Source: a virus | Lineage: Duplodnaviria; Caudoviricetes | DNA length: 59,874 nt | IMG/VR virus record: IMGVR_UViG_3300020045_005987 | Location: 1-59,874 of that record | Direction: 5' to 3' (one strand) | In this document: piece after piece, positions 3,164 to 51,400 of the stretch | How the letters are laid out: every line of letters begins with the position of its first letter | How positions within the stretch are numbered: the first letter of the stretch is position 1 | Made by a program: the position numbers and the translations under genes | Notes under the pieces: model-generated | What the model saw: only the letters and a program-made list of their open reading frames with translations | What the model was told of the DNA's origin: nothing | Database searches by the model: none

Positions 3164-4654
3164 ATGTCGGTTCCAGACCCTAATGATTCACAAGCACCCT
3201 CACAAGTGCCGCAGAGTACAGAAGCCGAGGAAGGTTTGCTCGGTTGTGTTTTGATTAATCCAGACGCGTATTATGAAGTCTGTGATTTGATCGTTTCTCT
3301 TGATTTCTATAGTAAAAAACGGCAATGGGTATGGGATGCTTTCGTCCTGCTTGTTGACGCAAAGACCCCGATAGATTTGTTGACTGTTTCAGAGGAACTT
3401 GATCGGGTTGGGCATTTGGATCAAATAGGAGGTTTTGCATATCTTAACGCCCTTATAAATCAATGCCCATCTTCGCTGAATGCTGTGGCTTATGCGCGAA
3501 TTATCGAGGGGTGTTCCATCAGACGCAAGATGATACAGAAAGCCAACAAGATTGCTTCGATTGCATATGATGAAAGCAAGTTGATCGAGGATGCCCTGTC
3601 TCAGTATGATGCAGTTTTCTCTGAACAGCAGTTGACATCATCTGCGACCGATGATACGGAAGATTCTGATGATGCATCCTTGGCTTTGATAGAAAGGATT
3701 ACATCGAAAACGCCTACTGGTGTCTTGTCCTACTTTCCAGAGTTTGACAAATATGATGCGCTTGGCGGATTTCCCATGGGTGGCACATTGTTGATGGGTG
3801 ATTCCAGTTTTGGAAAATCCGCAGTAGCCTTGCAGATTTGTGAACAGAATGCCCTTGCAGGAAATCAAGCCCTTTATATCGGACTTGAATCCACCAACGC
3901 CCAAATGGTAATTAGGCGCGTAGCTGGTGCCTCTGGTGTGGTTGGCGCGTCCAAGAAACTTAGAACTGCCTCGCTCACCGCACAGGAGGAAGAAGGTTTG
4001 CTCAAAGAGATACGCAATAATTATCAGGGAAAGTACAAAGGCAAGTTGAAGTTAAATTCTCGTGCCACTACTATTCGTCAGATAGAGAATGCCATTCGCA
4101 AACATAAGCCGAAGATATGTGTCATTGATCAAATATCACAGGTTACTGATATGCCGTCTACCAACCCGACCATGAACCTGCTCATGAATTTTGCTAGACT
4201 CAAGGCTCTTGGCAATAAATACAACTGCGCTGTGATCGTGGTGCATGCCATTTCCCCGGAAGAATCGCGCGTGTTTTTCAAGAAGAACCAAAAGTCCAGT
4301 GCTGGTAAAGTCCAAAAGAATGGTATCCCGAATATCAATGCAATTCCTTGGGCAAGCCAGATGAAATTCTTGGCGGATGTTATTTTGTTTCTGGTTCCGG
4401 AAGTCAATCAGAAGTTATCGGGTGTTGTCAAATATGAGATCATTATTTGGGTGATGAAGGATCGTGATGGAACTCGATTCACTGATTGCTGGTTTAATTA
4501 CGATTTAGTAATGCAGTGGTTTGAATCTAAGCCTGCTCCGTATAAATCATCGGCTCAAAGGCCATCTAGTTCACAAAGTCAAGTTCCAATGGTTGATTAT
4601 TCAATTGAAGATGAGCCCGAGTTTGACCAACTTGATTTTGACACTGTGAAATAA
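3164..4654 (+). CDS. dnaB: DnaB-like replicative helicase
   Basis: N-terminal PQSTEAEEGLLG...PIDLLTV; Walker A GDSSFGKS; Walker B ICVIDQ; KDRDG. Confidence 0.9.
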   Translation: MSVPDPNDSQAPSQVPQSTEAEEGLLGCVLINPDAYYEVCDLIVSLDFYSKKRQWVWDAFVLLVDAKTPIDLLTVSEELDRVGHLDQIGGFAYLNALINQCPSSLNAVAYARIIEGCSIRRKMIQKANKIASIAYDESKLIEDALSQYDAVFSEQQLTSSATDDTEDSDDASLALIERITSKTPTGVLSYFPEFDKYDALGGFPMGGTLLMGDSSFGKSAVALQICEQNALAGNQALYIGLESTNAQMVIRRVAGASGVVGASKKLRTASLTAQEEEGLLKEIRNNYQGKYKGKLKLNSRATTIRQIENAIRKHKPKICVIDQISQVTDMPSTNPTMNLLMNFARLKALGNKYNCAVIVVHAISPEESRVFFKKNQKSSAGKVQKNGIPNINAIPWASQMKFLADVILFLVPEVNQKLSGVVKYEIIIWVMKDRDGTRFTDCWFNYDLVMQWFESKPAPYKSSAQRPSSSQSQVPMVDYSIEDEPEFDQLDFDTVK

Positions 4655-4667
4655 TTGGAGAAAGTTA

Positions 4668-5144
4668 ATGAAATTGATAACGCTCACCCAAGGTCAATTC
4701 GCCAAAGTTGATGATGAAGATTTTGATGAACAGAATTTGTTTACTTGGCAAGCACGATGGAATCCTCAAACCAAGAGTTACTATGCACTTAGAACGGATT
4801 ATTCCCAAGGTGGGAAGAAATCTATTTTGATGCATCGTGAAATTATGAAAACTCCAAAAGGCATGATTTGTGATCATAGAAATCATGACACATTGTTTAA
4901 TTGCAAAGAAAATTTAAGGAATGTTACTAATTCTCAAAATGCAATGAATAGAAATAAAGCAAGCAATAATACAAGTGGATACAAGGGCGTGAGTAAGCAT
5001 AAGAACAAATGGGATGCACAGATAAAGAAAGATGGTAGATTGATGTTTTTGAAATCTTGCGCCACTGCCGAGGAAGCTGCTCGTGTTTATGATGACAAGG
5101 CTAAAGAATTATTTGGAGAATTTGCTCTTCTTAATTTCGGTTAA
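4668..5144 (+). CDS. HNH-AP2 homing endonuclease
   Basis: ITLTQG, MHREI, DHRNH..L.N..ENLR, NTSGYKGV, AA..YD; AT-rich. Confidence 0.9.
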   Translation: MKLITLTQGQFAKVDDEDFDEQNLFTWQARWNPQTKSYYALRTDYSQGGKKSILMHREIMKTPKGMICDHRNHDTLFNCKENLRNVTNSQNAMNRNKASNNTSGYKGVSKHKNKWDAQIKKDGRLMFLKSCATAEEAARVYDDKAKELFGEFALLNFG

Positions 5145-7350: not shown

Positions 7351-7956
7351 ATGAGTAAAAAGCGACCGTGTAGAGGATGTGGTAAGGAAAAGGATGCATC
7401 AGGAGCTAGGAGTCATTGGTGTTCTGAATGTAAAGAAAATCCATTGAATAGAATTTTAATAATTAACAGTATGTGCAAAGTTCATGATGTACACAAAACT
7501 GGTTTCCTGATTCAGAGCCATAAAAGCTCGGAAAAGTTTAAGTGTAAGATGTGTGAAAAAGAACGAAGAAAAAGAATGAGTGAAGATCCAGTTCAGCGAG
7601 AGAATTTTAAAAACTCTCAAAGAAAATATAGATTGTATATTAAGTATGGAATAACAGAAGATCAATGGGATGAGATTTACACATTACAAAACGGAATTTG
7701 TCCAATTTGTAAAAAGAATTTGCGTTTTAGGAGAGATTTGGTTGGTAAAATGCCAGCAGTAGATCATGACCACAGGACTGGTGTAATAAGAGGATTGGTT
7801 TGTCAATATCCATGTAACTATGTTTTAGGGTATTTACATGACAATTCTGATATGTTTTTATCTTGCTCTAAATATCTCAATAGTCCACCAACAAAAGGAA
7901 AAATAAATTTTGTTGTACCAGAAACTAGTATAGCTAAAAAATATAGACAAAAGTAA
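7351..7956 (+). CDS. Recombination endonuclease VII-like (HNH) nuclease
   Basis: CPIC...AVDHDHRTGVIRGLVC..CN..LG; AT-rich; TGTTATAAT upstream. Confidence 0.9.
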   Translation: MSKKRPCRGCGKEKDASGARSHWCSECKENPLNRILIINSMCKVHDVHKTGFLIQSHKSSEKFKCKMCEKERRKRMSEDPVQRENFKNSQRKYRLYIKYGITEDQWDEIYTLQNGICPICKKNLRFRRDLVGKMPAVDHDHRTGVIRGLVCQYPCNYVLGYLHDNSDMFLSCSKYLNSPPTKGKINFVVPETSIAKKYRQK

Positions 7957-10706: not shown

Positions 10707-10716
10707 TAAATAGTTA

Positions 10717-10850
10717 AATGACCTACTGCTTTGTGCGAGAATCAGAAGCACCTAGGCAACCCTGAGCGTAAACCGAAGGTTGAAAGCAGAAAGACGAATG
10801 CAAAAGTAAACCGCTGGTAGGTTCCATCTTCGGCAAAGTGGTAGGTCGTT
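10717..10850 (+). ncRNA. Structured intergenic/leader RNA
   Basis: 17-bp closing stem aatgacctactgctttg/caaagtggtaggtcgtt with three G-U pairs; inner hairpin aacc-gaa-ggtt. Confidence 0.55.
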
Positions 10851-10874
10851 ATCCATCCAAGTAAGGAGATAGAC

Positions 10875-12095
10875 ATGAGTGACATTTCAGTAAAGTTAAG
10901 TTTTGATTATTCCCCGGATACGAATTTTAGTCCTCCGCCATTTCCGTATGTGCCGAATGGAGTAAATGTTCTTGACATTAATAATGTTGATGCCATGCAG
11001 GATTACTTCAAGCAGTGTGGATGGTTTAGTATTTGGGGGAAGGAAATTGAGGGTATTGATGCATCCAAACCCGGCGGCTCCGCCTTTATTGGTTCTGATG
11101 ATAGTTGGTTGTATATGCGTAAGTCTGTAGAGTGGTTACCTGTTGGACAAATAGTTCCGCAACCTATTGTAAAATCCATCGAAGCCAAAGCCAACCTAAA
11201 GAAAGGTTCAGGAGCGAATAGCCCGATAGTAATCAGCATGAATTTGGATGGAGCTAGTTTTGCGTTCCTGCTTCACAAGATTGGATCTGGCACAAATGTC
11301 ATGGGTTTGTTGGGTTCTAATTTATTTCAATCTGAGTTAGGTTTGAAAAATGCCCGTATCCCATTTCCTGCGAACGCAACGTGGATCACGCATCCTCAGT
11401 ACCAAAAAGGAAGGAAAGTAAGTTCTTTGGCAATGGCGTTTAATACAGTCAATGTCAAGATAGATATTCAAACTAATCAGAATCTTGTAATCGGATGGAT
11501 GGCTATGCAGAATCCTTCGGGTGGTTCGATAGTTGGACCACCATCTGGTGGAGCTGTTCACAATTCCATGCCCATTGATGAAATGAGACGGTCTTATCCC
11601 AACACTGCCATTGCAAAACTTGTTGAATGGGGAGTTGCGAATAACTTTATTATGTTTGATCCTCCTATGGTCAGTACTCGCAATTATAAGAAACGCTATT
11701 CTCAGCAACAGCCAAATCTTTTTGACAGTGACAATATTGAGAGTTCAACGCTTTCGGCGGCTCTTGATACTTTTGTTCCTCCGCAAGAATTGGAACTTCC
11801 AGACTTATCCAGAGACGTGAAGTGGAAGTTGAATATTCGCGGGGTTGTCATCCTTGAAAAAGATGGTCAATTGTTATGGCCTCATGAAGTATTTGATCTG
11901 CACCAGATGGTTCAAGACAGCGAATCAATGGGTAGGCAGATTGCAGTTTCCTCCAATGAATACCAAAAGAGTGAGATTGAAGGATACAAGGATAATCTTG
12001 ACAAACAAATCGCCAAAGTACGTGCCTTGTTTGAATATCAGGCTCAGGTTGGCGAGAGTATTTCTTTACAGTCCAGAATTTTTGGAGAGGTGTGA
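10875..12095 (+). CDS. Hypothetical protein (406 aa)
   Basis: CATCCA+AAGGAG leader; no motif recognised. Confidence 0.85.
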   Translation: MSDISVKLSFDYSPDTNFSPPPFPYVPNGVNVLDINNVDAMQDYFKQCGWFSIWGKEIEGIDASKPGGSAFIGSDDSWLYMRKSVEWLPVGQIVPQPIVKSIEAKANLKKGSGANSPIVISMNLDGASFAFLLHKIGSGTNVMGLLGSNLFQSELGLKNARIPFPANATWITHPQYQKGRKVSSLAMAFNTVNVKIDIQTNQNLVIGWMAMQNPSGGSIVGPPSGGAVHNSMPIDEMRRSYPNTAIAKLVEWGVANNFIMFDPPMVSTRNYKKRYSQQQPNLFDSDNIESSTLSAALDTFVPPQELELPDLSRDVKWKLNIRGVVILEKDGQLLWPHEVFDLHQMVQDSESMGRQIAVSSNEYQKSEIEGYKDNLDKQIAKVRALFEYQAQVGESISLQSRIFGEV

Positions 12096-12096
12096 T

Positions 12097-12228
12097 ATGA
12101 AGTATGTTGGAATGTTTTGGCGTGGATTGTGGTTTCCTGTTCTGCGGCTATTTATTTTGTTAACGGCATTTGTAATCATGGTTTCTTATGGACCGGCACG
12201 TGCTATTGAGTGGCTGGATCAGCAATAA
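12097..12228 (+). CDS. Small membrane protein
   Basis: GAGGTG RBS; hydrophobic stretch. Confidence 0.55.
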   Translation: MKYVGMFWRGLWFPVLRLFILLTAFVIMVSYGPARAIEWLDQQ

Positions 12229-12229
12229 T

Positions 12230-12243
12230 TGGGAAGGTTCACA
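12230..12243. promoter_or_regulatory. Operator-like palindrome TGKGAA-N2-YTCMCA, copy 1
   Basis: tgggaaggttcaca; also at 16456 and 24125, each upstream of a promoter. Confidence 0.5.
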
Positions 12244-12279
12244 ATTTTAGCGCACCATTATTCACTTACTTGAATACCC

Positions 12280-12308
12280 TTGACAAATAGCATCGTATCG
12301 GATAGACT
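12280..12308 (+). promoter_or_regulatory. Sigma70-type promoter of MoxR-VWA operon
   Basis: TTGACA-17-TAGACT. Confidence 0.8.
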
Positions 12309-12348
12309 TAGTATTGTTGAATTCAAATCATCCATTAAAGGAGACAAT

Positions 12349-12444
12349 ATGAATAAAAAGCTTGTCATTTTGGTAGCGAATGCAATAATATGGGGATGGA
12401 TTGCATTTGGAATTTGGTTTTTAGTTGCAAGGGTTTTTAGTTAA
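12349..12444 (+). CDS. 31-aa single-pass membrane peptide
   Basis: TCATCCA+AAAGGAG; MNKKLVILVANAIIWGWIAFGIWFLVARVFS. Confidence 0.6.
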   Translation: MNKKLVILVANAIIWGWIAFGIWFLVARVFS

Positions 12445-12472
12445 TCATCCAACTTAAAAGGAGAAATAAGTT

Positions 12473-14470
12473 ATGCCAGCTAAATCAAAAGCAGTTGTAC
12501 AATCTGTCGGGCGCACATTCTCACAGCCTGACGAACTCCGGAACATTCTCGAACCTGTCATGCAAGCGGCAATGCTCGCGTGGCAGAATGTTTTGGTTGT
12601 GTCCAAGCCCGGATGTATTGCTGGTGACGCGATTGTCACCGTAAACCGCGCAGGCAACGGGCGTTCGCTTCCCATCAGTGAGCTTGTTGCTCGGCTGAAT
12701 GGCGGGAAGGTAACCACGAGAGGATGGGACTTATCCATCCCGACTTATATATCCATCGCAAAAGACGGGCTTGTTCGTTCTGTAAAGTTGAAGAATGCTT
12801 GGTGTTCAGGGACTAAAAAGACTTATACGTTGACCACAGCCTCGGGCCGTGAAATCCGCGCCACATCTGACCATCGTTTTATGCGGGAAGATGGTTCGTG
12901 GGCTGAACTAATTGACCTTAAATGGGGAGAGCCAATTTGTGTCAACATTGGCAAGTCTCAAAATGGGAATTCCAAAAAGAATGTCTACTTGGAGATTGTT
13001 ACCAAGTATCACCCGCACCAGAAAAGGAAAAGCAAATTGCTTGATGGGTCATACAGTCATGATGTTTTGGCGCACCGTTTGGCTTATGAAGCAAACATGA
13101 ACGGACTCACCTTCAATGATTATATTTACATTTTGAATCATGTTCCTGCTCAAGCGATGCAACTCCAATACCTACCGGAAGACATCCTTGTTCACCATAT
13201 TGATGAAAACATCAAAAACAATGACCCCGCGAATCTGCAAGCTGTAACCCTAGCCGAGCATCGGGCTATTCACTCTGCTACTGATTTTAAATATGTACTC
13301 GATCAAGTCGGTGTTGAGAAGGTCGAGAGATTGGATTACTTTGGTGAAGAACCGACATATGATATTGAGGTTGATGACGAGAGCCACAACTTCATAGCGA
13401 ATGGCTTTGTTGTTCACAACTGTGGCAAGTCCGAGATTTTGATGGCAATGGGCAAACAGGTATTTGGTCCCGATGTGTTCAATGGTCAGGATCGGACTTT
13501 CGTCCTGCCTTGCACTCCATCCACATTGCCCCCCGACATTGTAGGATATGCCAATCCTGTGTACAGTATTGATCCACAGGCTGAGGAAAAAGGCATTCCC
13601 TACTGGATCGTGAAAGGCACACCGGTTGATGAAGAAATCCTGTATTGCGTTCTTGAAGAAGCAACTCGTATTGGCGACCTCGGTGGTGATACGCTCGTTC
13701 ATGCCATGCATAACATCAGCAAGTTTCATCGTCCGCTTTACATTGCCAATGCAAACTGGTTGATTCCCACCCCTCGCAATGAGGCTTTGCGTGACCGGTT
13801 CAGCTTTACGATTTTCTATCAGCCGTCAGTGGTTGATATTGATGCGCTCGTTGCAAAGCCAACCATTAGTTCATGGCGTTTTGATCTTCCCACATTCGAA
13901 CAAATCGAACAGGTTCAGGCATGGACACGCGATTACATTCAAGCCCCGTTTGATTATCGTTGCAACTCGGTCATCATTGACCTGCTCAAGAATGTGCAAC
14001 GGGTATGTGAAGGCACAAGTTTCGAGTTCAACAACCGGCGCGTTTTCCAACTGCGCTCGATGTTGTATGCGATGGGTTGCCATGCCGAGGGCTCGAATGA
14101 CTTCACAGACATTCCCCGCATTGCCTTTGACGCTCTTGCCTATTCCTATCCAGTAGTGGACTTTCACGAGTCCAGCCAATGGCGCAAGATCATCATGAGT
14201 TTGGTTGATCGTGTCGAAACGGAAATTGCCGAGTTCAAGAGCAATGCTTATGCGGTTTGGAAAGGCATTTTTGCAGAGCATGCGGATCGTAGTGGAAACA
14301 TCAGTGCATCGCAACGGGACGCATTGAATCGCCAACTTGCCCAAACGTGGACCAGTTACGAGAAATCCTTGAAGACCGATTTCCCGAATGACAAGCGCGT
14401 TGCACAAGCCCTTGGTGAAATGTACTCGATCTACCGTGAATTGGTTTTGGGGAAAAACCCTTTGCGTTAG
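12473..14470 (+). CDS. MoxR/RavA-like AAA+ ATPase with intein
   Basis: Walker A SKPG|CGKS split by intein; PSTLPPDIVG; Walker B CVLEE; ALRDRF; adjacent VWA gene. Confidence 0.88.
   Translation: MPAKSKAVVQSVGRTFSQPDELRNILEPVMQAAMLAWQNVLVVSKPGCIAGDAIVTVNRAGNGRSLPISELVARLNGGKVTTRGWDLSIPTYISIAKDGLVRSVKLKNAWCSGTKKTYTLTTASGREIRATSDHRFMREDGSWAELIDLKWGEPICVNIGKSQNGNSKKNVYLEIVTKYHPHQKRKSKLLDGSYSHDVLAHRLAYEANMNGLTFNDYIYILNHVPAQAMQLQYLPEDILVHHIDENIKNNDPANLQAVTLAEHRAIHSATDFKYVLDQVGVEKVERLDYFGEEPTYDIEVDDESHNFIANGFVVHNCGKSEILMAMGKQVFGPDVFNGQDRTFVLPCTPSTLPPDIVGYANPVYSIDPQAEEKGIPYWIVKGTPVDEEILYCVLEEATRIGDLGGDTLVHAMHNISKFHRPLYIANANWLIPTPRNEALRDRFSFTIFYQPSVVDIDALVAKPTISSWRFDLPTFEQIEQVQAWTRDYIQAPFDYRCNSVIIDLLKNVQRVCEGTSFEFNNRRVFQLRSMLYAMGCHAEGSNDFTDIPRIAFDALAYSYPVVDFHESSQWRKIIMSLVDRVETEIAEFKSNAYAVWKGIFAEHADRSGNISASQRDALNRQLAQTWTSYEKSLKTDFPNDKRVAQALGEMYSIYRELVLGKNPLR
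12614..13420 (+). mobile_element. 269-aa intein with HNH endonuclease
   Basis: Starts CIAGD; block B ATSDHRF; ends HNFIANGFVVHN/C; HNH VHHIDENIKNNDPANL. Confidence 0.92.
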
Positions 14471-14475
14471 TAACT

Positions 14476-14536
14476 TTGCGAGCATAATGACGCTGTAAAC
14501 GGTGTTATCTGAAACTAAGTTTTAGTCCCTCCGCAA
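14476..14536 (+). ncRNA. Three-way-junction structured leader of VWA gene
   Basis: ttgcg/cgcaa closing; hairpins acgctg-taaa-cggtgt and ctgaaac-taa-gttttag. Confidence 0.45.
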
Positions 14537-14561
14537 TCTTCATCCAACCAAGGAGAATATT

Positions 14562-16133
14562 ATGAGAAATGATAAAAAGAATGAAATGGTTTTTGGGAGC
14601 AAGTCAAAATTTACTGCCTCTCGCAATAAGTTTGTTGATCCCCTATCCCCAACCATTCAGCATGACTTAACAGCCAGCCAGAAGGTGACAGCTTTGAATG
14701 TTCCCTTGGCATCATTCGGCAATCCAGTGATAGATGATACCCAACGTGATTTGTTTTGGGCGATATACCTTGCCAATTCCAACTTGAAAGAAATATCGCC
14801 TGAGGGACGTGAGTCCGTTCGTGGTATTGTGGATTGGGTTCTCTCTGATCCAAACTTCAAGATGAATGTGTTTGCTCTTGCAAACCATAAGGTCAGTGCC
14901 GCGTCAGCCGCTTATTCAATGGTTGAACAATTGATGGAAATGCCACCTGTGCAGAAAGCCATGCAGGGTTTGGGTGAAGCTGAAAAGATGGAGGAAAATG
15001 CAGACCAGCTTGACAATGAAGCGCAGGATGAACAAAACCAGTCTGGTGATGGACAAGACTCCCAACCTAAAATGTCCCCAAAGCAGAAGCAAGCCCTAGC
15101 GGACAAGCTTCGCCAACAAGCACAGGATAAGCGCGATAAAGCCAACCAAATGTTGGACAGTGTAACCGGCAATGAAACCCGTTCTGGTAGATTTGCCCGT
15201 TCTGGTAGCTTTGCCCGTTCTGGTGCTGTAAAAGCTGGTGCCGAATTTGGCGAGAATGTTGCGGCATTTTTATCTGCATGGGGTATTGATGAAGGCAAAG
15301 GATTGATGCTTTCCCCGGACCAGATCATGTCGATAATGAAATCCTTGTCCTCAACAGGTATTGCAACCCTGACCTCGTTGATTGGTCGTGTGTATGGGAT
15401 TGCGAATGAAACTCTCAAAGGACGAGCACCAGTTCAGATTGTTGCTGATACTGCTGGTTATACCAAGAAGATTTTGAGCATGCATCCTGCGGAAAGATTC
15501 AAGTTGACTCATGCATACCCATTTCGTGATCAAGCGGTTGAAGATTGGTTAAAGCGCGGTCTTGGTGGAATTACCGAAACCATGCAATCGGTCAGAGAAG
15601 GAAACTTCATTTGCTTTGTTGATGGTTCTGGATCAATGTCCCAAATGGAACAGGGCGGAACTCGTGAGGAGATTGCTAAAGCCCTTGCCCTTGGTTTGTC
15701 CAAAGCCGCTATTGAAAATGGGCAGGAGATTATGCTTGCCACCTTTGGTACTGGTAGGGAGTTAACTGATTTGGTTGATAATCGCACCAGCTTTGACAAG
15801 CGTCTTGAATGGGCAAGCTTCATGTTTGATGGTGGTACGAGTATCAATTTTGCCTTGAATACCATGATGGACTTGATAATTGGTATGGATGAAGAAGAAC
15901 GTTTCAAGTCTGATCTTGTAATCATTACAGATGGTGAAGCAGGAGTGAGTGAAGCTACCAAAGATCGTCTGCTTGAAATCAAAGAGGCTTATGGTGTTCG
16001 GTTATTCCTGCTCATGATTACCGGTGAATCTGGTTATGATACATCTGACATTGTTGAAGTGGCTGACAAGATGATGAAGTTCAAGAACCTTGATGATGCC
16101 GCAACGACCCTGTCTGGATTGATATGGATGTAG
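14562..16133 (+). CDS. VWA (MIDAS) domain protein, ViaA/CoxE-like partner
   Basis: DGSGSM, GGT, LVIITDG. Confidence 0.9.
   Translation: MRNDKKNEMVFGSKSKFTASRNKFVDPLSPTIQHDLTASQKVTALNVPLASFGNPVIDDTQRDLFWAIYLANSNLKEISPEGRESVRGIVDWVLSDPNFKMNVFALANHKVSAASAAYSMVEQLMEMPPVQKAMQGLGEAEKMEENADQLDNEAQDEQNQSGDGQDSQPKMSPKQKQALADKLRQQAQDKRDKANQMLDSVTGNETRSGRFARSGSFARSGAVKAGAEFGENVAAFLSAWGIDEGKGLMLSPDQIMSIMKSLSSTGIATLTSLIGRVYGIANETLKGRAPVQIVADTAGYTKKILSMHPAERFKLTHAYPFRDQAVEDWLKRGLGGITETMQSVREGNFICFVDGSGSMSQMEQGGTREEIAKALALGLSKAAIENGQEIMLATFGTGRELTDLVDNRTSFDKRLEWASFMFDGGTSINFALNTMMDLIIGMDEEERFKSDLVIITDGEAGVSEATKDRLLEIKEAYGVRLFLLMITGESGYDTSDIVEVADKMMKFKNLDDAATTLSGLIWM
15178..15225 (+). repeat. In-frame 18-bp tandem repeat (RSGxFA, about 2.7 copies)
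   Basis: cccgttctggtag(a/c)tttg at 15178 and 15196, partial at 15214. Confidence 0.9.
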
Positions 16134-16423
16134 TCATGAATACATCGGAAGATGCAACCTTTATTCTTACGAAAGGCAAAAGGCATTTTGTCAAAGCCAA
16201 CCGATGGGAAGTTGTGTCATCGCCCTTGAATGGTTATCTGCGCGGGACACAACTCCCCACCAGCGAAGCCAAAAAGATGTTGAGTTATGGAGATTTTTAT
16301 GATGATGGTACATGCCTGCACATCTATCCCGAGGATGTTTTAGTTTGGGTGAAAGGTCGCAAGCTTTATTTGGATCAGGAATGTTGTACTGAATCCAGCA
16401 AGGAACTCTCTGGATTGAAATGA
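16124..16423 (+). CDS. Hypothetical protein
   Basis: Overlaps VWA stop. Confidence 0.65.
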   Translation: MDVVMNTSEDATFILTKGKRHFVKANRWEVVSSPLNGYLRGTQLPTSEAKKMLSYGDFYDDGTCLHIYPEDVLVWVKGRKLYLDQECCTESSKELSGLK

Positions 16424-16474
16424 TCTAGCATGTTCAAGAAACATTGCAATATTATTGGGAAGGCTCCCATTTAC

Positions 16475-16503
16475 TTGACATTCCTTGACAAATAGGCTAG
16501 ACT
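16475..16503 (+). promoter_or_regulatory. Sigma70-type promoter with upstream palindrome (16456-16469)
   Basis: TTGACA-17-TAGACT with AGGC. Confidence 0.8.
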
Positions 16504-16511
16504 TAAAACAT

Positions 16512-16576
16512 AAGAACTTTGATTGATGTGAATCAAGTCATCGTAAACAGTAGTTAGGAAACTGGTCGAGGTTCTT
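16512..16576 (+). ncRNA. Three-way-junction 5' leader
   Basis: 13-bp stem aagaactttgatt/ggtcgaggttctt; gatg/catc; GTAAA linker; cagt/actg. Confidence 0.5.
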
Positions 16577-16604
16577 TCCTTCATCCAAATAAGGAGAATA
16601 AAAG

Positions 16605-17552
16605 ATGTCTGAACTAAAAAGAGACGATGGAGTACTTGCCAGCATCATAGTTTTGATCGAATGGGGTGGAAAGAAACCGTCCAGCACTTGGTACAACCGC
16701 TTGCATCAGTATGGGTTGTATTCCCGAATGCCCGAATCTGCCAAAGAAGAATATAGTCTGTTTGATTGGCGCGCATCCCGCAATGGAACTCGAAAGAATG
16801 ATGAATATCGTGGTTTGATCCTCCAAGAGGGTGCGATCATGGTCAGCAATGTCCAGCTTGCAACAGACATCGCTTCATGGGCAAAGGCTGAGGGTTGTGT
16901 GTTCGTTCATGTCGGGCACATGATAACCAAGGAATTCAGCTTGGATGAACGTAGTCGAAATGCCTTCGAAACCCTGCAAAAGAATGTTGGCAAGCGCGGT
17001 CCGAAACGACAAGCCGAAGTTGGGCAATATGTCGTTACTTGTTTCAGCGAAGTAAAGACCTATCAGGTTGACCTTGAAGCCATTCCGTTCCAGTGCCCGT
17101 ATTGTGGTGGATCAAACATCCAAGCACGCATGGGCAAGGTGAATGTATTTCAGTCTGCCTTCGAAGGTGACAGCGTTGACTATTGGAAACGCACCCGCTT
17201 TGCTTCTGGTCAATTTGAAGTCCCTGAGTTGGTCAAGAATGTCCCCGGCAAGCCTGTTGCCAAATCCCCCAAATTGACCGTACCAGAAATTGAAGCACCT
17301 GTTTTGGTTGACCTGCCCGATGAATTGCAGGAGGAAATCAGAACAGACCTGATCAGATATTGGCATCTTTTGGATTTGGCATTCTGTGTCCAGAGATTCA
17401 GCAAGACACAGCGGATTGATGGTCGTTTGTTGGTCATCAATGCATTTATTGTCAGTGGTGGAATGTCTGTCATGTCCTTCAATCCCCCAAGCAATGGCGT
17501 GGATTTAGTTGATCTTTGCATCCTTGATAACCAGTTAGCTGAATATTTATAA
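16605..17552 (+). CDS. Protein with possible Cas2/PaaX/VapD-like N-terminal fold and central Zn ribbon
   Basis: IIVLIEW...YNRLHQYG...LQEGAIMV pattern; C..E...CPYCG. Confidence 0.5.
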   Translation: MSELKRDDGVLASIIVLIEWGGKKPSSTWYNRLHQYGLYSRMPESAKEEYSLFDWRASRNGTRKNDEYRGLILQEGAIMVSNVQLATDIASWAKAEGCVFVHVGHMITKEFSLDERSRNAFETLQKNVGKRGPKRQAEVGQYVVTCFSEVKTYQVDLEAIPFQCPYCGGSNIQARMGKVNVFQSAFEGDSVDYWKRTRFASGQFEVPELVKNVPGKPVAKSPKLTVPEIEAPVLVDLPDELQEEIRTDLIRYWHLLDLAFCVQRFSKTQRIDGRLLVINAFIVSGGMSVMSFNPPSNGVDLVDLCILDNQLAEYL

Positions 17553-18637: not shown

Positions 18638-19312
18638 ATGAACCAGAAACAGATTGAAACGTTGAAATATGTATCCCTTATCAATCTCTTTGCCATGTTC
18701 GCTGTGGCTGTAACGCTTGCCGCAATCTCCATCGCATCATTGTTGCAGACAATCAGCGCGTTCAACAAAATGGCTGACCCGACCCTCCCGATCTTGGGCA
18801 TGCTGTTGCCCATTGCCTATGGCGTGTTGTTTCAGTATGGTCAGAATGCCGCGCTTTATATCCGTCAGCATTACTGTGACTCACGAACCATCTTTTACCT
18901 GTGGGAGTTTGGTGTGACATCCCGCCACATTGCAATGGGCGTGTTTATTGTCTGCGCTTTTGTAGATGCCGCCACCAATGTTCTTTGGTTTTACCGTAGT
19001 GTTGAACCATCCGGGGACATTTTGACAGATTCCTTGGTGATGGCAATCGGATACCCAAGTATGATACTTGTCGTCTTTGCCGAGGAGGTCTTTGGTCGTG
19101 TCCTGCAAGCCCTCCGCCGCGTGATGAATGAGTACAAGTCCATCAAACAGCGCGAGAAAGCCAGCGGAATAATTGAAGAATCTCGTCATCCTGCTAATCT
19201 TTATCCGCGTGGAAATTCTACTTACCCATCCCCGGCAGTCCAGCGCGGATTTCGCAGTTACGTTCCTCCAGAGCCGAAGTATATGGATCTAAATGATGAG
19301 GATAACAAATGA
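18638..19312 (+). CDS. Four-TM membrane protein
   Basis: AAGGAG RBS; four hydrophobic segments. Confidence 0.75.
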   Translation: MNQKQIETLKYVSLINLFAMFAVAVTLAAISIASLLQTISAFNKMADPTLPILGMLLPIAYGVLFQYGQNAALYIRQHYCDSRTIFYLWEFGVTSRHIAMGVFIVCAFVDAATNVLWFYRSVEPSGDILTDSLVMAIGYPSMILVVFAEEVFGRVLQALRRVMNEYKSIKQREKASGIIEESRHPANLYPRGNSTYPSPAVQRGFRSYVPPEPKYMDLNDEDNK

Positions 19313-20271
19313 AGCTTATTTCACTTACACAAGGTAAATCCGCTAAGATTAATGACCATTGGTATGATTATTTAATGCAGTGGAAATGGTCAGCATACAA
19401 AGATTCTAGGTCAAATAAATGGTACGCAACTCGCATAGAAGGTACACGACCAAATAGGAAACAGATTTTGATGCACCGTGTAGTCAGTGGTTGTAAACAT
19501 GGCGAAATGGTTGACCATCGTGACGGGGATGGTCTAAACAATCAAGACGAAAACCTCAGGACTTGCACAAATTCACAAAATCAAGCCAACCGCCAAAAAC
19601 CGTCTAACAATACAAGTGGTTGGAAGGGTGTACAAAAGACAAGAAATAGAAAGTTCATCGCTAGGCTTGTAAAGAATAAGGTTACTGTTTTTTGTAAAAC
19701 ATTCAAATCTGGCATTGATGCCGCAAAAGCTTACGACACTGCCGCTATCGAACATTTCGGAGATTTTGCTAACTTAAATTTTTCTAAGGAATCTAATCTA
19801 ATGTTCAACCCAAAGCCTAAGCCACCCAAAAAAGAAGCCAAGCCTCCCAAACGAATTCTGGTAAAAGCATTGGCTGATAGGCGTAAGTTTAGCAGGACAG
19901 AACGTTCACAACTCGAATCCGAATTAGTTACGCTTTGTTCAAAATATGTCAGGCTCCGCGATGGTAATCAATGCGTTACTTGTGGATCACAGCAAGAACT
20001 TACCTGCTCCCATTTTATTAAACGAGCAAAGCAGATAGTTAGTTATGATGTTGAAGTTAATCTGAATTGTCAATGCCTGACCTGCAATGGTATCCATAAC
20101 CGCGATGAGTCCGCCTATATGGCCTATTTGATAAAGAAGCATGGTTTGGCAAAGGTTGAAGTGTTAAAGGCATTGAATGGTATTTCTTATTTTAGATGGA
20201 GTGTTATTGAACTTCGAGATATGGTCGAAGATATGAAAAAGAAACTGGAGAGTTTATATGGAAGATCGTAA
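19309..20271 (+). CDS. HNH-AP2 endonuclease fused in frame to NinG/Rap-like nuclease
   Basis: N-terminal HNH-AP2 motifs; from ATG 19801 SKYVRLRD..CVTCG..SHF..N...QC..CN. Confidence 0.8.
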   Translation: MKLISLTQGKSAKINDHWYDYLMQWKWSAYKDSRSNKWYATRIEGTRPNRKQILMHRVVSGCKHGEMVDHRDGDGLNNQDENLRTCTNSQNQANRQKPSNNTSGWKGVQKTRNRKFIARLVKNKVTVFCKTFKSGIDAAKAYDTAAIEHFGDFANLNFSKESNLMFNPKPKPPKKEAKPPKRILVKALADRRKFSRTERSQLESELVTLCSKYVRLRDGNQCVTCGSQQELTCSHFIKRAKQIVSYDVEVNLNCQCLTCNGIHNRDESAYMAYLIKKHGLAKVEVLKALNGISYFRWSVIELRDMVEDMKKKLESLYGRS

Positions 20272-25191: not shown

Positions 25192-27180
25192 ATGGAGTTC
25201 AGTGATTTTCAGAAAGTATTTGCCTCCCACTCAAAAGAAGTGTTGAAATATGACAACCTTTTCGTCCTTGATGTCGATAAGGACTTGCTGTGGGCTACGT
25301 ATTTGAACGGATTCCCTCCAGAGTTCAATCAGGTGTATCGGGAACGGCGTGAGTTTGATTGCTCATGTTGTCGTCACTTCATCAAGAATGCTGGAGCGTT
25401 GGTTGCAATCACTCCCGACTATGAAGTTGTCACGCTTTGGGACTTCGACACCAATGATGAGTGCTACCAGCCCATGCTCGAAGCCATGGGCGAATTTTTT
25501 CGGTCCCGTATCCAAGGTACGTTTTTTGCCAAGCAGAAAGTCTTTGGAGCAAAGACCACCCTTGAACAATTGGACAAGGGCGTGAAGAAGTGGCACCATT
25601 TGTACCTTGAAGTCCCTGACAAATATGTCACCAATGACGTTGCTGAGAAGAAGGAAACCTGCCGCGCTACTGCTCAGGTATTTGATCGTTCATTGAATGA
25701 GTTAAGCCCTGAAAGCGTAATGATCGCTCTTGAACTCATTGACGAAAAGATGTTATATCGCGGCGATGAGTGGAAGAACCCTCTCCTGACATTCCAAGGA
25801 TTGCAAAATGACTTCCTATCCCTTGATGATTACCACAGGGAGAGATTTGTGTGGCGACAGTCTTTGAAGGTTGGTGGCAATGTTGCGAGAATTCGCAACA
25901 ACAGTGTCGGCACATTGTTGACTGACTTGACTGGTGGAATGGAAGTTGATCAAGCCCTGTGCCGTTGGGAAGGTGTGATGGCTCCCACCAATTACAAACG
26001 CCCCAAGGCCGTGTTCACGAAGAAGATGGTAGAGGAAGCCGCGAAGACAGCAGAGGAATTGGGTCTGTCTGATAGCTTGCATCGTCGCTTTGCAACCATT
26101 GAAGACATCACCATTAACAATGTTTTATGGGTGAATAAGGGAGCAAAGAAGCGTGGCGGAAAGTTAGGTGCTTTCCAGCAACTTGCTGATAATGTTCAAG
26201 TCAATCCGCGCAATGTAAACGCTCAAAGTATCAATGTCGAAGACTTCATTCAGCACATTGGAGAACTCCAGAGCCTTGAAGTGTTGTTTGAAGGTCGTCA
26301 CTCTGGCAACCTTGTTTCGCTCATTTCACCCATGTACGAATCCATCCCACTGACAAAATGGGATAACGGGTTTACATGGGCGTACAATGGCAACATTGCC
26401 GATAGCATGAAGGAGCAGGTCAAAGCTGCTGGCGGATTTGCTGATGGTGTGTTGCGCTTCTCAATTCGTTGGAACGACGGCAATGGTGATACGAGCGACT
26501 ATGACGCTCATTGCCGCACCCCGCATGGTGTGATTTATTATAGTAACAAAGTAGTTGGTCGTGGGATGTTGGATGTTGATATTATCCACCCGACTGGCGT
26601 TGCTGTAGAAAATATCACTTGGCGCGAGAAGCAGGATATTCCTGTTGGCAAGTATGATTTCTTTGTGCGTTGTTACAATGCCCGAAATAGCCAAATGTTT
26701 GATGCTGAAATCGAAGCTGATGGTGAAGTTTTCCAGTTCACATATCCACATCGAATGAATACTGGAGAGGATGTTGCGATCTCCAGCGTCACATGGAACG
26801 GGCGTGAATTCAGCATAAAGAATCATCTTGAAGAAACTGCCGCTCTTGGGAAAGAAGTGTGGGGTGTTGGTACTGGAGTATTCTCGCCAGTTTCGACTGT
26901 AATGTTTTCCCCGAACCATTGGGACGATAATGCAATTGGAAATCGTCATTACTTCTTTATGCTCCAAAACTGCAAGAATGATGGTCAGCCGAATGGATTC
27001 TATAATGAATTCCTGCCCGAAGGTTTGACAAAGCACCGCAAAGTTTTTGAGGCATTGGGTAGCCAGATGAAGGTTGAAAAGTCAGACGTTCAATTGTCCG
27101 GTCTTGGGTTTAGCACCACAAAGCGTGATAACCTGATTGTCAGAGTTGATGGCGGTCAGATATTGAAAATCATATTCTAA
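25192..27180 (+). CDS. Large conserved phage protein with YfaP-like domain
   Basis: DCSCCRHFI; LRFSIRWN..DYDAHC...LDVDI...AVENITW. Confidence 0.8.
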   Translation: MEFSDFQKVFASHSKEVLKYDNLFVLDVDKDLLWATYLNGFPPEFNQVYRERREFDCSCCRHFIKNAGALVAITPDYEVVTLWDFDTNDECYQPMLEAMGEFFRSRIQGTFFAKQKVFGAKTTLEQLDKGVKKWHHLYLEVPDKYVTNDVAEKKETCRATAQVFDRSLNELSPESVMIALELIDEKMLYRGDEWKNPLLTFQGLQNDFLSLDDYHRERFVWRQSLKVGGNVARIRNNSVGTLLTDLTGGMEVDQALCRWEGVMAPTNYKRPKAVFTKKMVEEAAKTAEELGLSDSLHRRFATIEDITINNVLWVNKGAKKRGGKLGAFQQLADNVQVNPRNVNAQSINVEDFIQHIGELQSLEVLFEGRHSGNLVSLISPMYESIPLTKWDNGFTWAYNGNIADSMKEQVKAAGGFADGVLRFSIRWNDGNGDTSDYDAHCRTPHGVIYYSNKVVGRGMLDVDIIHPTGVAVENITWREKQDIPVGKYDFFVRCYNARNSQMFDAEIEADGEVFQFTYPHRMNTGEDVAISSVTWNGREFSIKNHLEETAALGKEVWGVGTGVFSPVSTVMFSPNHWDDNAIGNRHYFFMLQNCKNDGQPNGFYNEFLPEGLTKHRKVFEALGSQMKVEKSDVQLSGLGFSTTKRDNLIVRVDGGQILKIIF

Positions 27181-48415: not shown

Positions 48416-51400
48416 ATGGCTGACACTGATAAGCTTGAATGGAGATTATTTGATACAGATCTAACCACTACCATGGACATAGTACCGTCCAAGTCTGGTA
48501 GCGGGTTGTACTTTGAGTTGAATGAACCCGGAAGTGGGATGATCAAAATCCAACTTGACAGTGCCGCCGCCGGAGATGTTTCGTCTGGTAGATTTTTACG
48601 TAATTCGTTTCGGGGTGGAGTTAGAGGTGGATTTTTTGCTGAGAACATAAAGAAGGTTTACGCAGATCGCTCCGAGGGTGGAGGACGTGTCTTATCTGTT
48701 ACTGGACGAGGACCGCTTGCCCTGCTTGATGATGCCATTGTTTTTGATGAAGCGTCAGGTTCTACTCGTGATTATACGGCCATGACAAAAGCCGGGATAA
48801 TGATCGAATTGATTGATGAAGCACAGGCAAGAGGAGCATTAGCAAATCTGACTTATGATTTTACGGCTGTGGTTGACAGTGATGGGGTGGCTTGGACTGA
48901 TAGCGAATATTATAGTTTGGCTGTTGGAACTTCCCTGCTGGACGTGGCAAGACAGTTCGCGCGCGCGGGAGAGTTTGATTTTGATATTGTTTTATCAGGA
49001 TCAAGCTTTGTTTTAAGTGCGTACAAAAATGGGAAGGGTACTGACAAATCTGAGACTATCTATTTTAGGGTTGGAAAAAACTGTGAAGAAGTTAATTCCG
49101 ATGAGCGTGGGGATAAGATCAAGAACGTCCTGCGGGTTGCGTATAAGGATGGGTACATAACGTCCAGCGATCCGACCTCGATCACAAATCGCAGGAGACG
49201 TGAAGAACTTTTTAATGTCAAACAGGCTCAGACATCTTCATCAGCTATGACTGCTGGTGCGGCAAAACTTGCGTTGACAAAAGACCCCAAGTTTCAAATA
49301 GCGTTGCGAGTTTTCGATGATGCTGGTGTCAATGTATTTGTTGATTATGATCTTGGGGACACTGTCATGCTTGACAATTCCGGTACTGAAACGGCTTATC
49401 GAATTTATGGTTTACAGGTGGATTTTGACGAGACTGGTAATGCCAGCGTTGTAGTTGAACTTAACTCGACCATGTATGACAATGATGTTCGGATGTCTCA
49501 GGATTTGGATTGGCTTCTTGATCAGTGGAATACTGCGTATGATGCTGGTTTATTGGAAGTTAGTTTTTGGGCGGCATTGGGATTGTCTAGTGATACCATT
49601 GTGAATGAAGGCATCTCGGCGATGCACATAATAGGGGATGAAATATATATAGGCACGCTTAACACGTCTGTTTTAGGCGGATTGACCGACCCGACTTTGG
49701 GAACTTTTTTTTGGTATAACTTCAAGACTGGCGTTTGGGGTTCGGCATATGCTGGCGGAGGTATCCGCACATTCGCATCAATTGGAACTAATTTATATAT
49801 TGGGTTGGCGTTGGGTGCGGTGGAACTTTATGATACCATCACCAAGCCCGCAATGGCAACAGACGTATTAAGCTTTGATTGGTCTTTTGAAACTAATCTA
49901 ACAGACGTGCGGGCGATGGCCGCTATTGGAACTGATTTGTATGTCGGTGGATATTTCGATTCTGCGGACGATGGTACTGGAGGAGCAACGGCGGCATTGC
50001 ATATCTGCAAATATGACACGTTGACCGACACTGTTTCAGCTATCGGAGCAGGGGCAAATAATAAGATTTGGTCTTTTGCTGTGAGTGGCTCCACTTTATA
50101 TATGGGCGGGGAGTTTACGACCCTTGATGGAGGCGCGGCAGTAAGAGTTGGAAAACTTATAAGCACAACTTACTCAGCTTTGGGCGCTGGGTTGGATGGG
50201 ACTGTTTATGCCCTCGCAATTAGCGGATCAAATCTAATCGCTGGCGGTGCGTTCACTGGCAAGATAGCAGAATGGGATACGTCCGCTTGGGCTGTCTTGG
50301 GTGGAGGAGTTAATAATACAGTCTACGGGCTTGCGGTTTATCTCGCTGATATTTATGCAGTGGGCGCATTCACTGATGTCGGAAATAGAATCGCGGTGTA
50401 CAGCGGCGGAGCGTGGCGGGCTTTGGCCGAAGGGCTAAATGATACCTGCTATGCAATTGTTCTCAACAACGAGGATGTTTATGTTGGCGGAAAATTTACA
50501 ACCGCAGGATTGAAAACAGCAATTGGAGTCGCGGCTTATTTCAACAACTTTGACAGCCTGATGGATTATGCGGGAGCGTATAGTTCATTCGATATGGGGG
50601 CGGCTATTCATGCGGCCGCCGCATCCGCTATCACTGATACAGATGAAGTTCCATTTTGGGAGGCGACTGCCAATGGTCTTCGAAAGATCACGTGGGCTAA
50701 TATAAAGACAACACTTAAGACTTACTTTGATACGCTTTATGCTGATTTGGTTCAAACAGCGGGGCGGGTGATAATATCTGACCCCGTATCTGGAGAGGTA
50801 ACAACAGATGCGACCCTGAAATTTAATTCTGATAACGCCTCAAAGCAATTGCACTTGGGAATAGTCAACGGGACAACAGGAAATTATATTTTCAATCAGG
50901 GTAATGAGGGCGGGTCTGCGATTCACTTTATGGAAACTTACGGCGCGGGTGCGATAGGTTCGTTTGTTTCTGGTATTCGCGCGCAGGGTACGCAGGAAGT
51001 CCCCACCGCAGTTTTAGCCAATGATCTTATATTGCGCTTGCGCGCGCGAGCGTATTATGACGCTGGGCTTTTAGCCAACACGACAGCAGAAATAAGATTG
51101 GTAGCTGACGAAAACCACAGCGTAACAAACCAAGGGTCAAGAATTGAGTTTCTGGCAACTCCGAACGGAAGCACTGTTGCTTCAATTGCAACAACATTGA
51201 CGCTTTACGGAACGGGTGCGGCAACTCTGGCGGGGAGATTGACAAGTGCGGGTCATACTATAGACACCAATTCCACAACTGCGTTATTAGTAGAACAGGA
51301 CGGCGTAAAAGATAATGTGTTTATTGTTGATACTACCAACGCAAGAGTTGGAATAGGAATTGTTCCCACATTAGCCTCATTGCACATAGAAGAAACAAGG

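Follow-up and report, generated by a model that had tools for sequence, protein, structure and literature searches.

MoxR-VWA Pairs and the Phage Gene Block

To our knowledge, pairs of a MoxR-type AAA+ ATPase and a protein with a von Willebrand factor A (VWA) domain are widespread, their clients are known for only a few, and for none of the phage-borne pairs is a target known. The RavA-ViaA pair of Escherichia coli acts on respiratory complexes. Here we describe a gene block at 10875-17552 of the IMG/VR virus record IMGVR_UViG_3300020045_005987 (59,874 bp; this whole stretch of DNA is called the window below), which encodes a predicted MoxR-like ATPase interrupted by an intein, a ViaA-like VWA protein and two large proteins, g406 and g315, flanking the pair. 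For its interpretation RavA-ViaA, CbbQ-CbbO and NorQ-NorD served as the analogy, from known families of this type. Viral pairs have been reported as well: Bacillus phage 0305phi8-36 has a MoxR-type pair (orf66/orf63; PMC2147016), haloarchaeal siphoviruses carry an adjacent AAA and VWA pair in a replication/accessory module (halovirus Hardycor1, HrrHc1_240/245; PMC7911831), and the Acidianus two-tailed virus, an archaeal virus, has a MoxR/VWA pair implicated in tail assembly (p618/p892; PMC7159879). Bacterial MoxR-vWA ternary conflict systems of the VMAP, iSTAND, FtsH and beta-propeller types are set out in the same account (Kaur et al., 2020; PMC7159879).

The block described here is a new, very divergent case of the already known viral MoxR-VWA pairs, with two orphan families as putative partners. 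It shares with the pairs of 0305phi8-36, Hardycor1 and the Acidianus two-tailed virus the adjacent genes for the AAA protein and the VWA protein with its MIDAS, the adhesion site that depends on a metal ion, and differs from them in two extra conserved large partner genes and in the intein. As in E. coli RavA-ViaA, the gene next after that of the ATPase encodes the VWA protein, which has its VWA domain, intact MIDAS included, at the C-terminus. By structure the phage ATPase resembles RavA best, although the identity is 15-16%, and the phage protein has no detected counterpart of the client-binding region of RavA: the alignment stops at RavA residue 304 of 481, beyond which the model predicts a helical tail of its own. 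The phage VWA protein differs from ViaA by a poly-acidic linker, and the pair as a whole from RavA-ViaA by being phage-borne and by having its ATPase split by an intein. The bacterial ternary conflict systems likewise join a MoxR-vWA couple to adjacent conserved, system-specific large proteins; g406 and g315 match no Pfam family, and the carrier is a phage and not a multicellular bacterium.

The ATPase Precursor and Its Intein

The ATPase precursor is encoded by an open reading frame (ORF) of 665 aa at 12473-14470 (every element of the block given here and below lies on the + strand). Pfam recognized in it only an intein splicing domain (Intein_splicing, residues 98-316, E-value = 1e-16, 61.6 bits against a cut-off of 35.8) and an HNH_3 domain (E-value = 1.2e-6, 28.5 bits against a cut-off of 24.8). 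The junctions read VLVVSKPG/CIAGDAIV and FVVHN/CGKSEIL, placing the insertion point in the Walker A loop (SKPG/CGKS), between G47 and C317. The hallmarks read from the sequence are Cys1, a TSDH (TxxH) block B, a terminal His-Asn and a +1 Cys, the last standing where other family members have Tyr, Asn, Phe or Thr in the P-loop. The homologue from the related locus L002 (389 aa) is intein-free and runs uninterrupted across the junction (GEPGNGKTE); its residues 14-45 align with window residues 16-47 at 78% identity, and it aligns with window residues 318-661 at 58% identity (E-value = 8e-153). Thus, the insert is a 269 aa intein from C48 to N316 (12614-13420), containing the HNH endonuclease domain. 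It separates an N-extein of residues 1-47 (12473-12613), ending with the first half of the Walker A motif (VVSKPG), from a C-extein of C317 to R665 (13421-14470), beginning with the second half (CGKSE). By these sequence features, the ORF carries an HNH intein. The predicted spliced ATPase would have 396 aa, its Walker A motif being restored only after splicing.

The ATPase family counts 18 proteins in a collection of 5.8 billion sequences and the insert is present in the window's member only, being absent from the 17 others and from all seven related loci. Among GenBank phages, the intein is matched most closely (23-35% identity) by stretches within the genes of ThyX, ribonucleotide reductase (RNR) and DnaB. 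An intein inside a P-loop is an ordinary occurrence: those at the DnaB, terminase, RFC and MCM type sites are likewise HINT and HNH inserts within Walker A. Compared with the P-loop inteins of other ATPases, the host gene is here a MoxR-like one, from an 18-member family with one intein-bearing member. The window has two further HNH_3 genes, at 4668-5144, with a weak AP2-like domain, and at 19309-20271, a NinG-like fusion; no relationship between either of these free-standing genes and the HNH domain of the intein was detectable.

Assignment of the ATPase

We consider the ATPase MoxR-like by predicted fold and by motif order. An AlphaFold2 (AF2) model was made from the intein-free L002 homologue with a 16-sequence alignment, reaching a predicted local distance difference test (pLDDT) score of 81.4 and a predicted template modelling (pTM) score of 0.72. 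Foldseek ranked 2r44, which we take to be a MoxR-family protein, first and RavA (3nbx) second (E-values of ~3-4e-7), with MCM proteins next. Re-alignment of the model with RavA 3nbx gave a Z of 20.2 and a root-mean-square deviation of 3.3 Å over 255 residues, about 4 Z above MCM (Z 15.9), with BchI behind (Z 14.9). At the level of profiles, hhalign matched the ATPase family to E. coli RavA over 136 core columns, which run from Walker A as far as RDRF (E-value = 1e-4, probability 57%). The Walker A residues G45, G47 and K48 are invariant in the 16 aligned homologues, and the family alignment also keeps E119, N151, R163/D164/R165/F166 and N246/R248, which in our reading would be the Walker B Glu, sensor 1, the arginine finger (RDRF) and sensor 2, respectively.

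Several results weigh against this assignment. No Pfam, NCBIfam or PDB match above threshold identified the protein as MoxR or AAA+ by a sequence model: in Pfam the intact L002 homologue reached AAA_16 at 0.0026, AAA_7 at 0.053 and AAA_5 at 0.091 (13.2 bits against a cut-off of 22), all below the respective cut-offs; a search of the window with PF07726 (AAA_3) gave no match; and the family profile met, among PDB sequences, nothing beyond stretches around the P-loop in ClpC and midasin, with E-values of at least 0.0017. The C-extein alone had no match in Pfam, PDB or PHROG. Furthermore, the Walker B Glu (E119) is invariant, whereas the residue before it varies: most members have Asp, the subclade of the window has Glu (VLEE), and the family's most distant pair, P0017 and P0018 (37% identity), have Ala or Asn; therefore, full ATPase activity cannot be taken for granted. 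The original prediction, made from the sequence of the window, had called the protein MoxR-like; the call is borne out by fold and motif order and finds no sequence model above threshold. As it stands, the result is a correct call of a cryptic ATPase that every sequence model missed, together with an ordinary P-loop intein.

The Predicted VWA/MIDAS Adaptor

The gene at 14562-16133 encodes a 523 aa protein with a conserved N-domain, a poly-acidic linker, a conserved middle domain and a C-terminal VWA domain. The latter was matched by Pfam VWA_2 (E-value = 4e-9, 37.5 bits against a cut-off of 27) and has an intact MIDAS (DGSGS...GGT...TDG), of which D354, S356, S358, T426 and D457 are invariant in six of six homologues. 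The top NCBIfam matches cover the VWA part only and are ViaA (E-value = 4.9e-11) and the putative cobaltochelatase subunit TIGR02442 (E-value = 1.3e-7). The ViaA equivalog NF008230 scored 42.5 bits against a cut-off of 500, aligning with the VWA domain alone. Alignment with E. coli ViaA (residues 297-470) by hhalign gave a probability of 97.3% (E-value = 2.8e-11, 169 columns). Judged by these comparisons, the protein is a predicted ViaA-like adaptor in kind and not a ViaA orthologue. Taken together with RavA as the best structural match of its neighbour, this agrees with the pair of MoxR-type ATPase and VWA/MIDAS protein that had been proposed. The linker, rich in D, E and Q, varies several-fold in size among the homologues, from a few dozen to ~100 residues (alignment columns ~160-260).

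Conservation of the Gene Block

Related loci were collected from IMG/VR and JGI metagenomes; one of them (L003) is too short to include a downstream gene. The ATPase gene is followed by the VWA gene in all seven loci with downstream room (the window, L002, L004, L005, L006, L007 and L010), and the order g406-ATPase-VWA-(g99)-g315 is found in all four that reach both sides of the pair (the window, L002, L010 and L006), with g406 and g315 cut by the contig ends in L006. Identities to the window are 29% for g406 (E-value = 8e-48), 58% for the ATPase, 53% for the VWA protein and 48% for g315 in L002, and 28, 51, 39 and 39%, respectively, in L010. The original prediction had named flanking genes that never co-occur with the pair as the observation that would speak against it; since g406 and g315 flank the pair in 4/4 informative loci, this is not what was found.

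Other genes nearby are less constant. Different loci have different small genes in the stretch from VWA to g315, and the genes between g275 and g406 also differ: ERF and a single-stranded DNA-binding protein (SSB) are found there in L002, and g138 and g295 of the window are unmatched in L002 or L010. Three further shared contigs are hinted at by equal longest-contig sizes in the protein tables, namely 17516 (ATPase, g315, g406), 57353 (ATPase, g315) and 61662 (g315, g406). Scanning IMG/VR with the VWA alignment returned only two contigs, both already among the related loci; IMG/VR scans with the ATPase alignment, the distant g406 subfamily and the distant ATPase pair, and a GTDB genome scan with the ATPase alignment, returned no relatives. 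The locus L009, a candidate for g315 without the pair, was dropped from the synteny count, as its left end is an IS1595-family transposase. This transposase gene (2-922, - strand; DDE_Tnp_IS1595, E-value = 1.5e-34), the immediate upstream neighbour of the g315 homologue, is cut by the end of the contig, so L009 is uninformative on the presence of the pair.

Flanking Proteins g406, g99 and g315

All the ORFs that had been listed for the block (406, 31, 99 and 315 aa, the ATPase and the VWA protein) are present, and an extra hydrophobic ORF of 43 aa was found. The first of the large flanking genes, g406 (10875-12095, 406 aa), stands directly upstream of the ATPase gene in all informative loci. 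It matched no Pfam family even at E-values up to 10, and neither did 18 more distant members that were scanned. At the same limit, no protein of the block matched Pfam DUF6744. Its family has eight proteins, itself included, in the database of 5.8 billion sequences, and at E ≤ 0.001 a set of 1.84 billion yields 36 cluster representatives related to it. The g406 alignments have few invariant polar residues, and therefore a binding or structural protein is suggested rather than an enzyme. The gene g99 (16124-16423, 99 aa) starts within the end of the VWA gene, overlapping it by 10 nt. Homologues directly follow the VWA gene in L007 (54%) and L010 (44%) and are lacking in L002 and L006, so that g99 is found after the VWA gene in three of the five loci with sequence at that place, the window included.

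The second large flanking gene, g315 (16605-17552, 315 aa), belongs to a family of 10 database proteins, itself included, and matched no Pfam family; PDB profile searches with g406 and g315 gave nothing below an E-value of 0.1. In the AF2 model of g315 (pLDDT 69.1), a ferredoxin-like N-domain is predicted, followed by a basic linker (KRGPK) that is disordered, then a small ribbon and, with good confidence, a helical C-domain (residues ~180-315). The N-domain, with a generic ferredoxin-like beta-alpha-beta-beta-alpha-beta order and pLDDT values of ~35-80, filled the Foldseek match lists, so that these speak mainly for this domain and hardly for the C-domain. In PDB and BFVD no match reached E ≤ 0.001, so that of the structural searches proposed originally, the one with the ATPase led to 2r44 and RavA and the one with g315 to no match at that threshold. 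The Cas2/PaaX-like fold once proposed for g315 is weakly supported: the best Z on structural re-alignment was 5.8, Cas2 8ia4_A came at rank 35 with a Z of 4.5, level with dozens of unrelated proteins, and Cas2 5xvp_E was matched by Foldseek at an E-value of 1.0. Regarding the proposed Zn ribbon, only three invariant Cys were found (C146, C164 and C167), and the full CxxC...CxxC pattern is seen in a distant homologue, in locus L012. A reading of g315 as HypA, which arose from one homologue named 'HypA/HybF' in its source and from a Pfam HypA match on P0028 at 0.0084, was rejected, hhalign against E. coli HypA giving a probability of 0.9% over 22 columns that cover the CxxC knuckle only. Leads from the ESM Atlas (unnamed viral clusters only for g406, and 'LysW' at 0.75 for g315) were not usable. 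In L012 (2434-6192), the g315 relative adjoins a 213 aa protein with weak similarity to class-II glutamine amidotransferases (E-value = 0.007) and stands beside a 459 aa protein that, as we presume, resembles an amidoligase.

Proposed Function and Alternatives

With modest confidence, we take the block of g406, the MoxR-type ATPase, the ViaA-like adaptor, an optional g99 and g315 to be probably a remodelling machine, with g406 and g315 as its likeliest clients. The 269 aa intein would be spliced out of the 665 aa precursor, joining SKPG to CGKSE and giving the active ATPase of 396 aa. By analogy with RavA-ViaA, CbbQ-CbbO and NorQ-NorD, this ATPase would form a ring on which the VWA protein might dock, the MIDAS gripping an acidic residue of the client, and ATP hydrolysis would remodel or mature the client in early-to-middle infection; the block is found in the replication/recombination region, with sigma-70-like promoters ahead of it. 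It is most likely g406 and/or g315 that would serve as client or cofactor of the pair; this is the weakest step, resting on adjacency in one lineage. The two protein families kept beside the pair thus offer two concrete candidate clients, and if g406 or g315 does bind, a client system of a phage MoxR-VWA pair would be defined for the first time.

The adjacency itself has to be weighed with caution. In L002 and L010, synteny extends to two more early genes, g275 and g168, and the four-gene loci make up one rare lineage of uncultured siphovirus-like phages, with three IMG/VR contigs (the window's included) and a few metagenome contigs. As all co-occurring loci derive from one broadly syntenic lineage, they cannot count as independent cases in favour of a functional link, and the genes may be adjacent through shared descent alone. 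A 222 aa relative of g315 (27% identity to residues 15-243, E-value = 7e-17) is encoded on L012, a contig of a Thermogutta (planctomycete) metagenome-assembled genome, and this 7.2 kb contig has no match to the ATPase, the VWA protein or g406 beside it. Additionally, a sigma-70-like promoter (TTGACA-17-TAGACT, 10/12 consensus) was found at 12280-12308, ahead of the 31 aa ORF and the ATPase gene, and consensus scans placed a terminator-like hairpin at 16456-16469 and a promoter-like TTGACA-17-TAGACT at 16475-16503. These sites suggest three separate predicted transcription units, namely g406, ATPase-VWA-g99 and g315; the promoter scan as a whole showed no enrichment, with 22 found against 21 expected in shuffles. 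All these points weigh against g406 and g315 as partners of the pair. They fit an explanation in which the pair is real and the flanks unrelated to it, the pair acting on a host complex or another phage protein and g406 and g315 being neighbours by membership in a young syntenic lineage. Besides the synteny of g275 and g168, the L012 relative without the pair and the sites that divide the units, such an explanation can draw on the variation among loci in the small genes that stand between VWA and g315. It has to face the four large genes, contiguous in 4/4 informative loci at 28-58% identity while their upstream neighbours are replaced, and we hold it possible but rather doubtful.

A tighter association, in which the four large genes would be one 'quaternary' MoxR-VWA machine with g406 and g315 as obligate clients or specificity subunits, serving host takeover or counter-defence, appears unlikely to us. 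In it, g406 would figure as a fast-evolving family in which no catalytic residues are detectable, and g315 as a protein of ferredoxin-like domain and ribbon. On the phage side, such a machine would correspond to the bacterial MoxR-vWA ternary conflict systems, with the separate CATCCA leaders described below possibly coordinating early expression. Counter-defence taken by itself had been among the original suggestions and found no positive evidence; the pair would here dismantle or sequester a host immune complex, with g406 or g315 as specificity factors. The block does lie in the early region, where anti-defence genes often occur, and the bacterial ternary systems are proposed as conflict systems (PMC7159879); against this, PADLOC has no family for g406, the VWA protein, g99 or g315, and the block shows no patchy presence and absence of the sort usual for anti-defence genes, occurring in every related locus that reaches it. 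On the ATPase, PADLOC gave only two P-loop-level matches (E-values of ~0.007-0.009), and no effector, peptidase or nucleotide-signalling domain was found in the block proteins. We regard counter-defence as quite improbable. A chelatase or metallochaperone acting in the manner of CobS/CobT or BchI/BchD, inserting metal into a phage or host enzyme with g315 as the metal handler, seems more improbable still. Its appeal lies in the VWA protein, whose layout of N-domain, poly-acidic linker and C-terminal VWA domain presumably resembles CobT and BchD and whose VWA domain is matched by TIGR02442 at 1.3e-7, in BchI as one of the structural matches (Z 14.9), and in the HypA/HybF name and the P0028 match mentioned above. 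However, TIGR02442 scored 30.5 bits against a cut-off of 779.45 and covers the VWA domain only, RavA stands 5 Z units over BchI, the g315 family aligns with HypA at the probability of 0.9% already given, and Pfam CobS or CobT had no match. Least probable of all, and very much so, is a chaperone of virion assembly resembling the MoxR/VWA proteins of the Acidianus two-tailed virus, which are implicated in tail development; the viral precedent is cited in PMC7911831 and PMC7159879, but the block is placed among replication and recombination genes (DnaB at 3164 and endonuclease VII at 7351 in the window; ERF and SSB in L002), and the genes for terminase and portal come only 13 kb further downstream. 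Like counter-defence, the chelatase and virion-assembly readings found no positive evidence.

CATCCA Leaders and Leader Structures

The motif CATCCA-N(2-10)-AGGAG occurs at 10 sites on the + strand of the window (693, 3138, 5232, 10854, 12329, 12446, 14541, 16582, 21395 and 24854) and at none on the - strand, with 0.12 expected. As originally noticed, five of these are leaders within the block, with CATCCA 4-7 nt before AGGAG: those of g406 (10854-10868), the 31 aa ORF (12329-12343), the VWA gene (14541-14555) and g315 (16582-16596) have a spacing of N4 and that of the ATPase gene (12446-12463) of N7. The five sites outside the block precede genes at 690, 3164, 5256, 21412 and ~24880, and the structural half of the window has zero such leaders. 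With a looser spacing (2-30 nt before AGGAG), the motif was also found in the related loci, on the + strand only, with five sites in L002 and two each in L010, L009, L006, L004 and L007, several of them ahead of ATPase, VWA or g315 homologues. Together with the window, the total comes to 25 sites in seven loci. As it precedes early genes across the window and in related phages, CATCCA is not specific to the block; it is a lineage-wide element of the translation-initiation regions of early genes and no part of the remodelling machine proposed above. The claim that each gene of the block has its own regulatory leader has to be given up accordingly, the motif preceding 10 early genes, five of them outside the block, and recurring in all related loci examined; this also warns that 'regulatory leaders' of this kind are a genome-wide feature. 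A -10-like box (TAGAAT/TAGATT) ends 7-9 nt upstream of CATCCA in four cases, so CATCCA could be where transcripts have their 5' ends; the other sites have no promoter close by. The motif could also be a site of processing or be bound by an RNA-binding factor of the phage, and it may be a more unusual feature than the gene block itself.

Structured leaders had been proposed for three genes of the block, and the one of g406 stands. It has a long hairpin at 10717-10850, with an 18-bp outer stem around ~100 nt, and the surrounding 10707-10856 folds at -42.3 kcal/mol (z -3.0), none of 200 shuffles being as good. L010 lacks such a hairpin, the gap from the preceding ORF to g406 being only ~30 nt in that locus. 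For the VWA leader the result is borderline (z -2.3, 5/200 shuffles), two overlapping stretches before g315 (16424-16520 and 16504-16604) do not stand out (z -1.8 and -1.6), and the leader of the 31 aa ORF folds worse than its shuffles (z +1.4).

Genome Setting and Neighbouring Genes

The window is the entire virus record, which is linear and estimated to be ~60% complete, and nearly all its long ORFs are on the + strand. PHROG matches include a DnaB-like helicase (3164-4654), a ParB/methyltransferase, the large terminase, the portal, the tape-measure protein and an endolysin, and Pfam identified endonuclease VII at 7351-7956 and the HNH/NinG fusion at 19309-20271. On the grounds of these replication and recombination matches, the block is placed in the early part of a siphovirus-like genome, with the terminase and portal genes 13 kb downstream. 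Relatives of the terminase are scattered across many phyla. Against 50,697 GenBank phage records, the block region had no nucleotide match by megablast, and neither the C-extein nor the VWA protein found a match by tblastn at E ≤ 0.001. Neither Rfam families nor tRNAs were found in the window.

Two small hydrophobic ORFs lie between g406 and the ATPase gene, one of 43 aa directly 3' of g406 (12097-12228) and one of 31 aa (12349-12444). Neither is conserved: both are without counterpart in L002 or L010, and at the position of the 43 aa ORF there is an unrelated 66 aa ORF in L002 and no ORF in L010. Judged from these two loci, both fall outside the conserved block. The 31 aa ORF is preceded by its own promoter-like site and CATCCA leader.

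Further downstream, a 1496 aa ORF at 48416-52906, after the tape-measure gene, matched no PHROG family at E ≤ 0.001. At 25192-27180 a 662 aa protein is encoded that matches phrog_1735 from end to end (E-value = 6e-219). Its relatives, all below 60% identity, occur in 506 GenBank phage records, most commonly in Salmonella, Klebsiella and Bacillus phages, and among the matches listed they are named 'hypothetical protein' where annotated.

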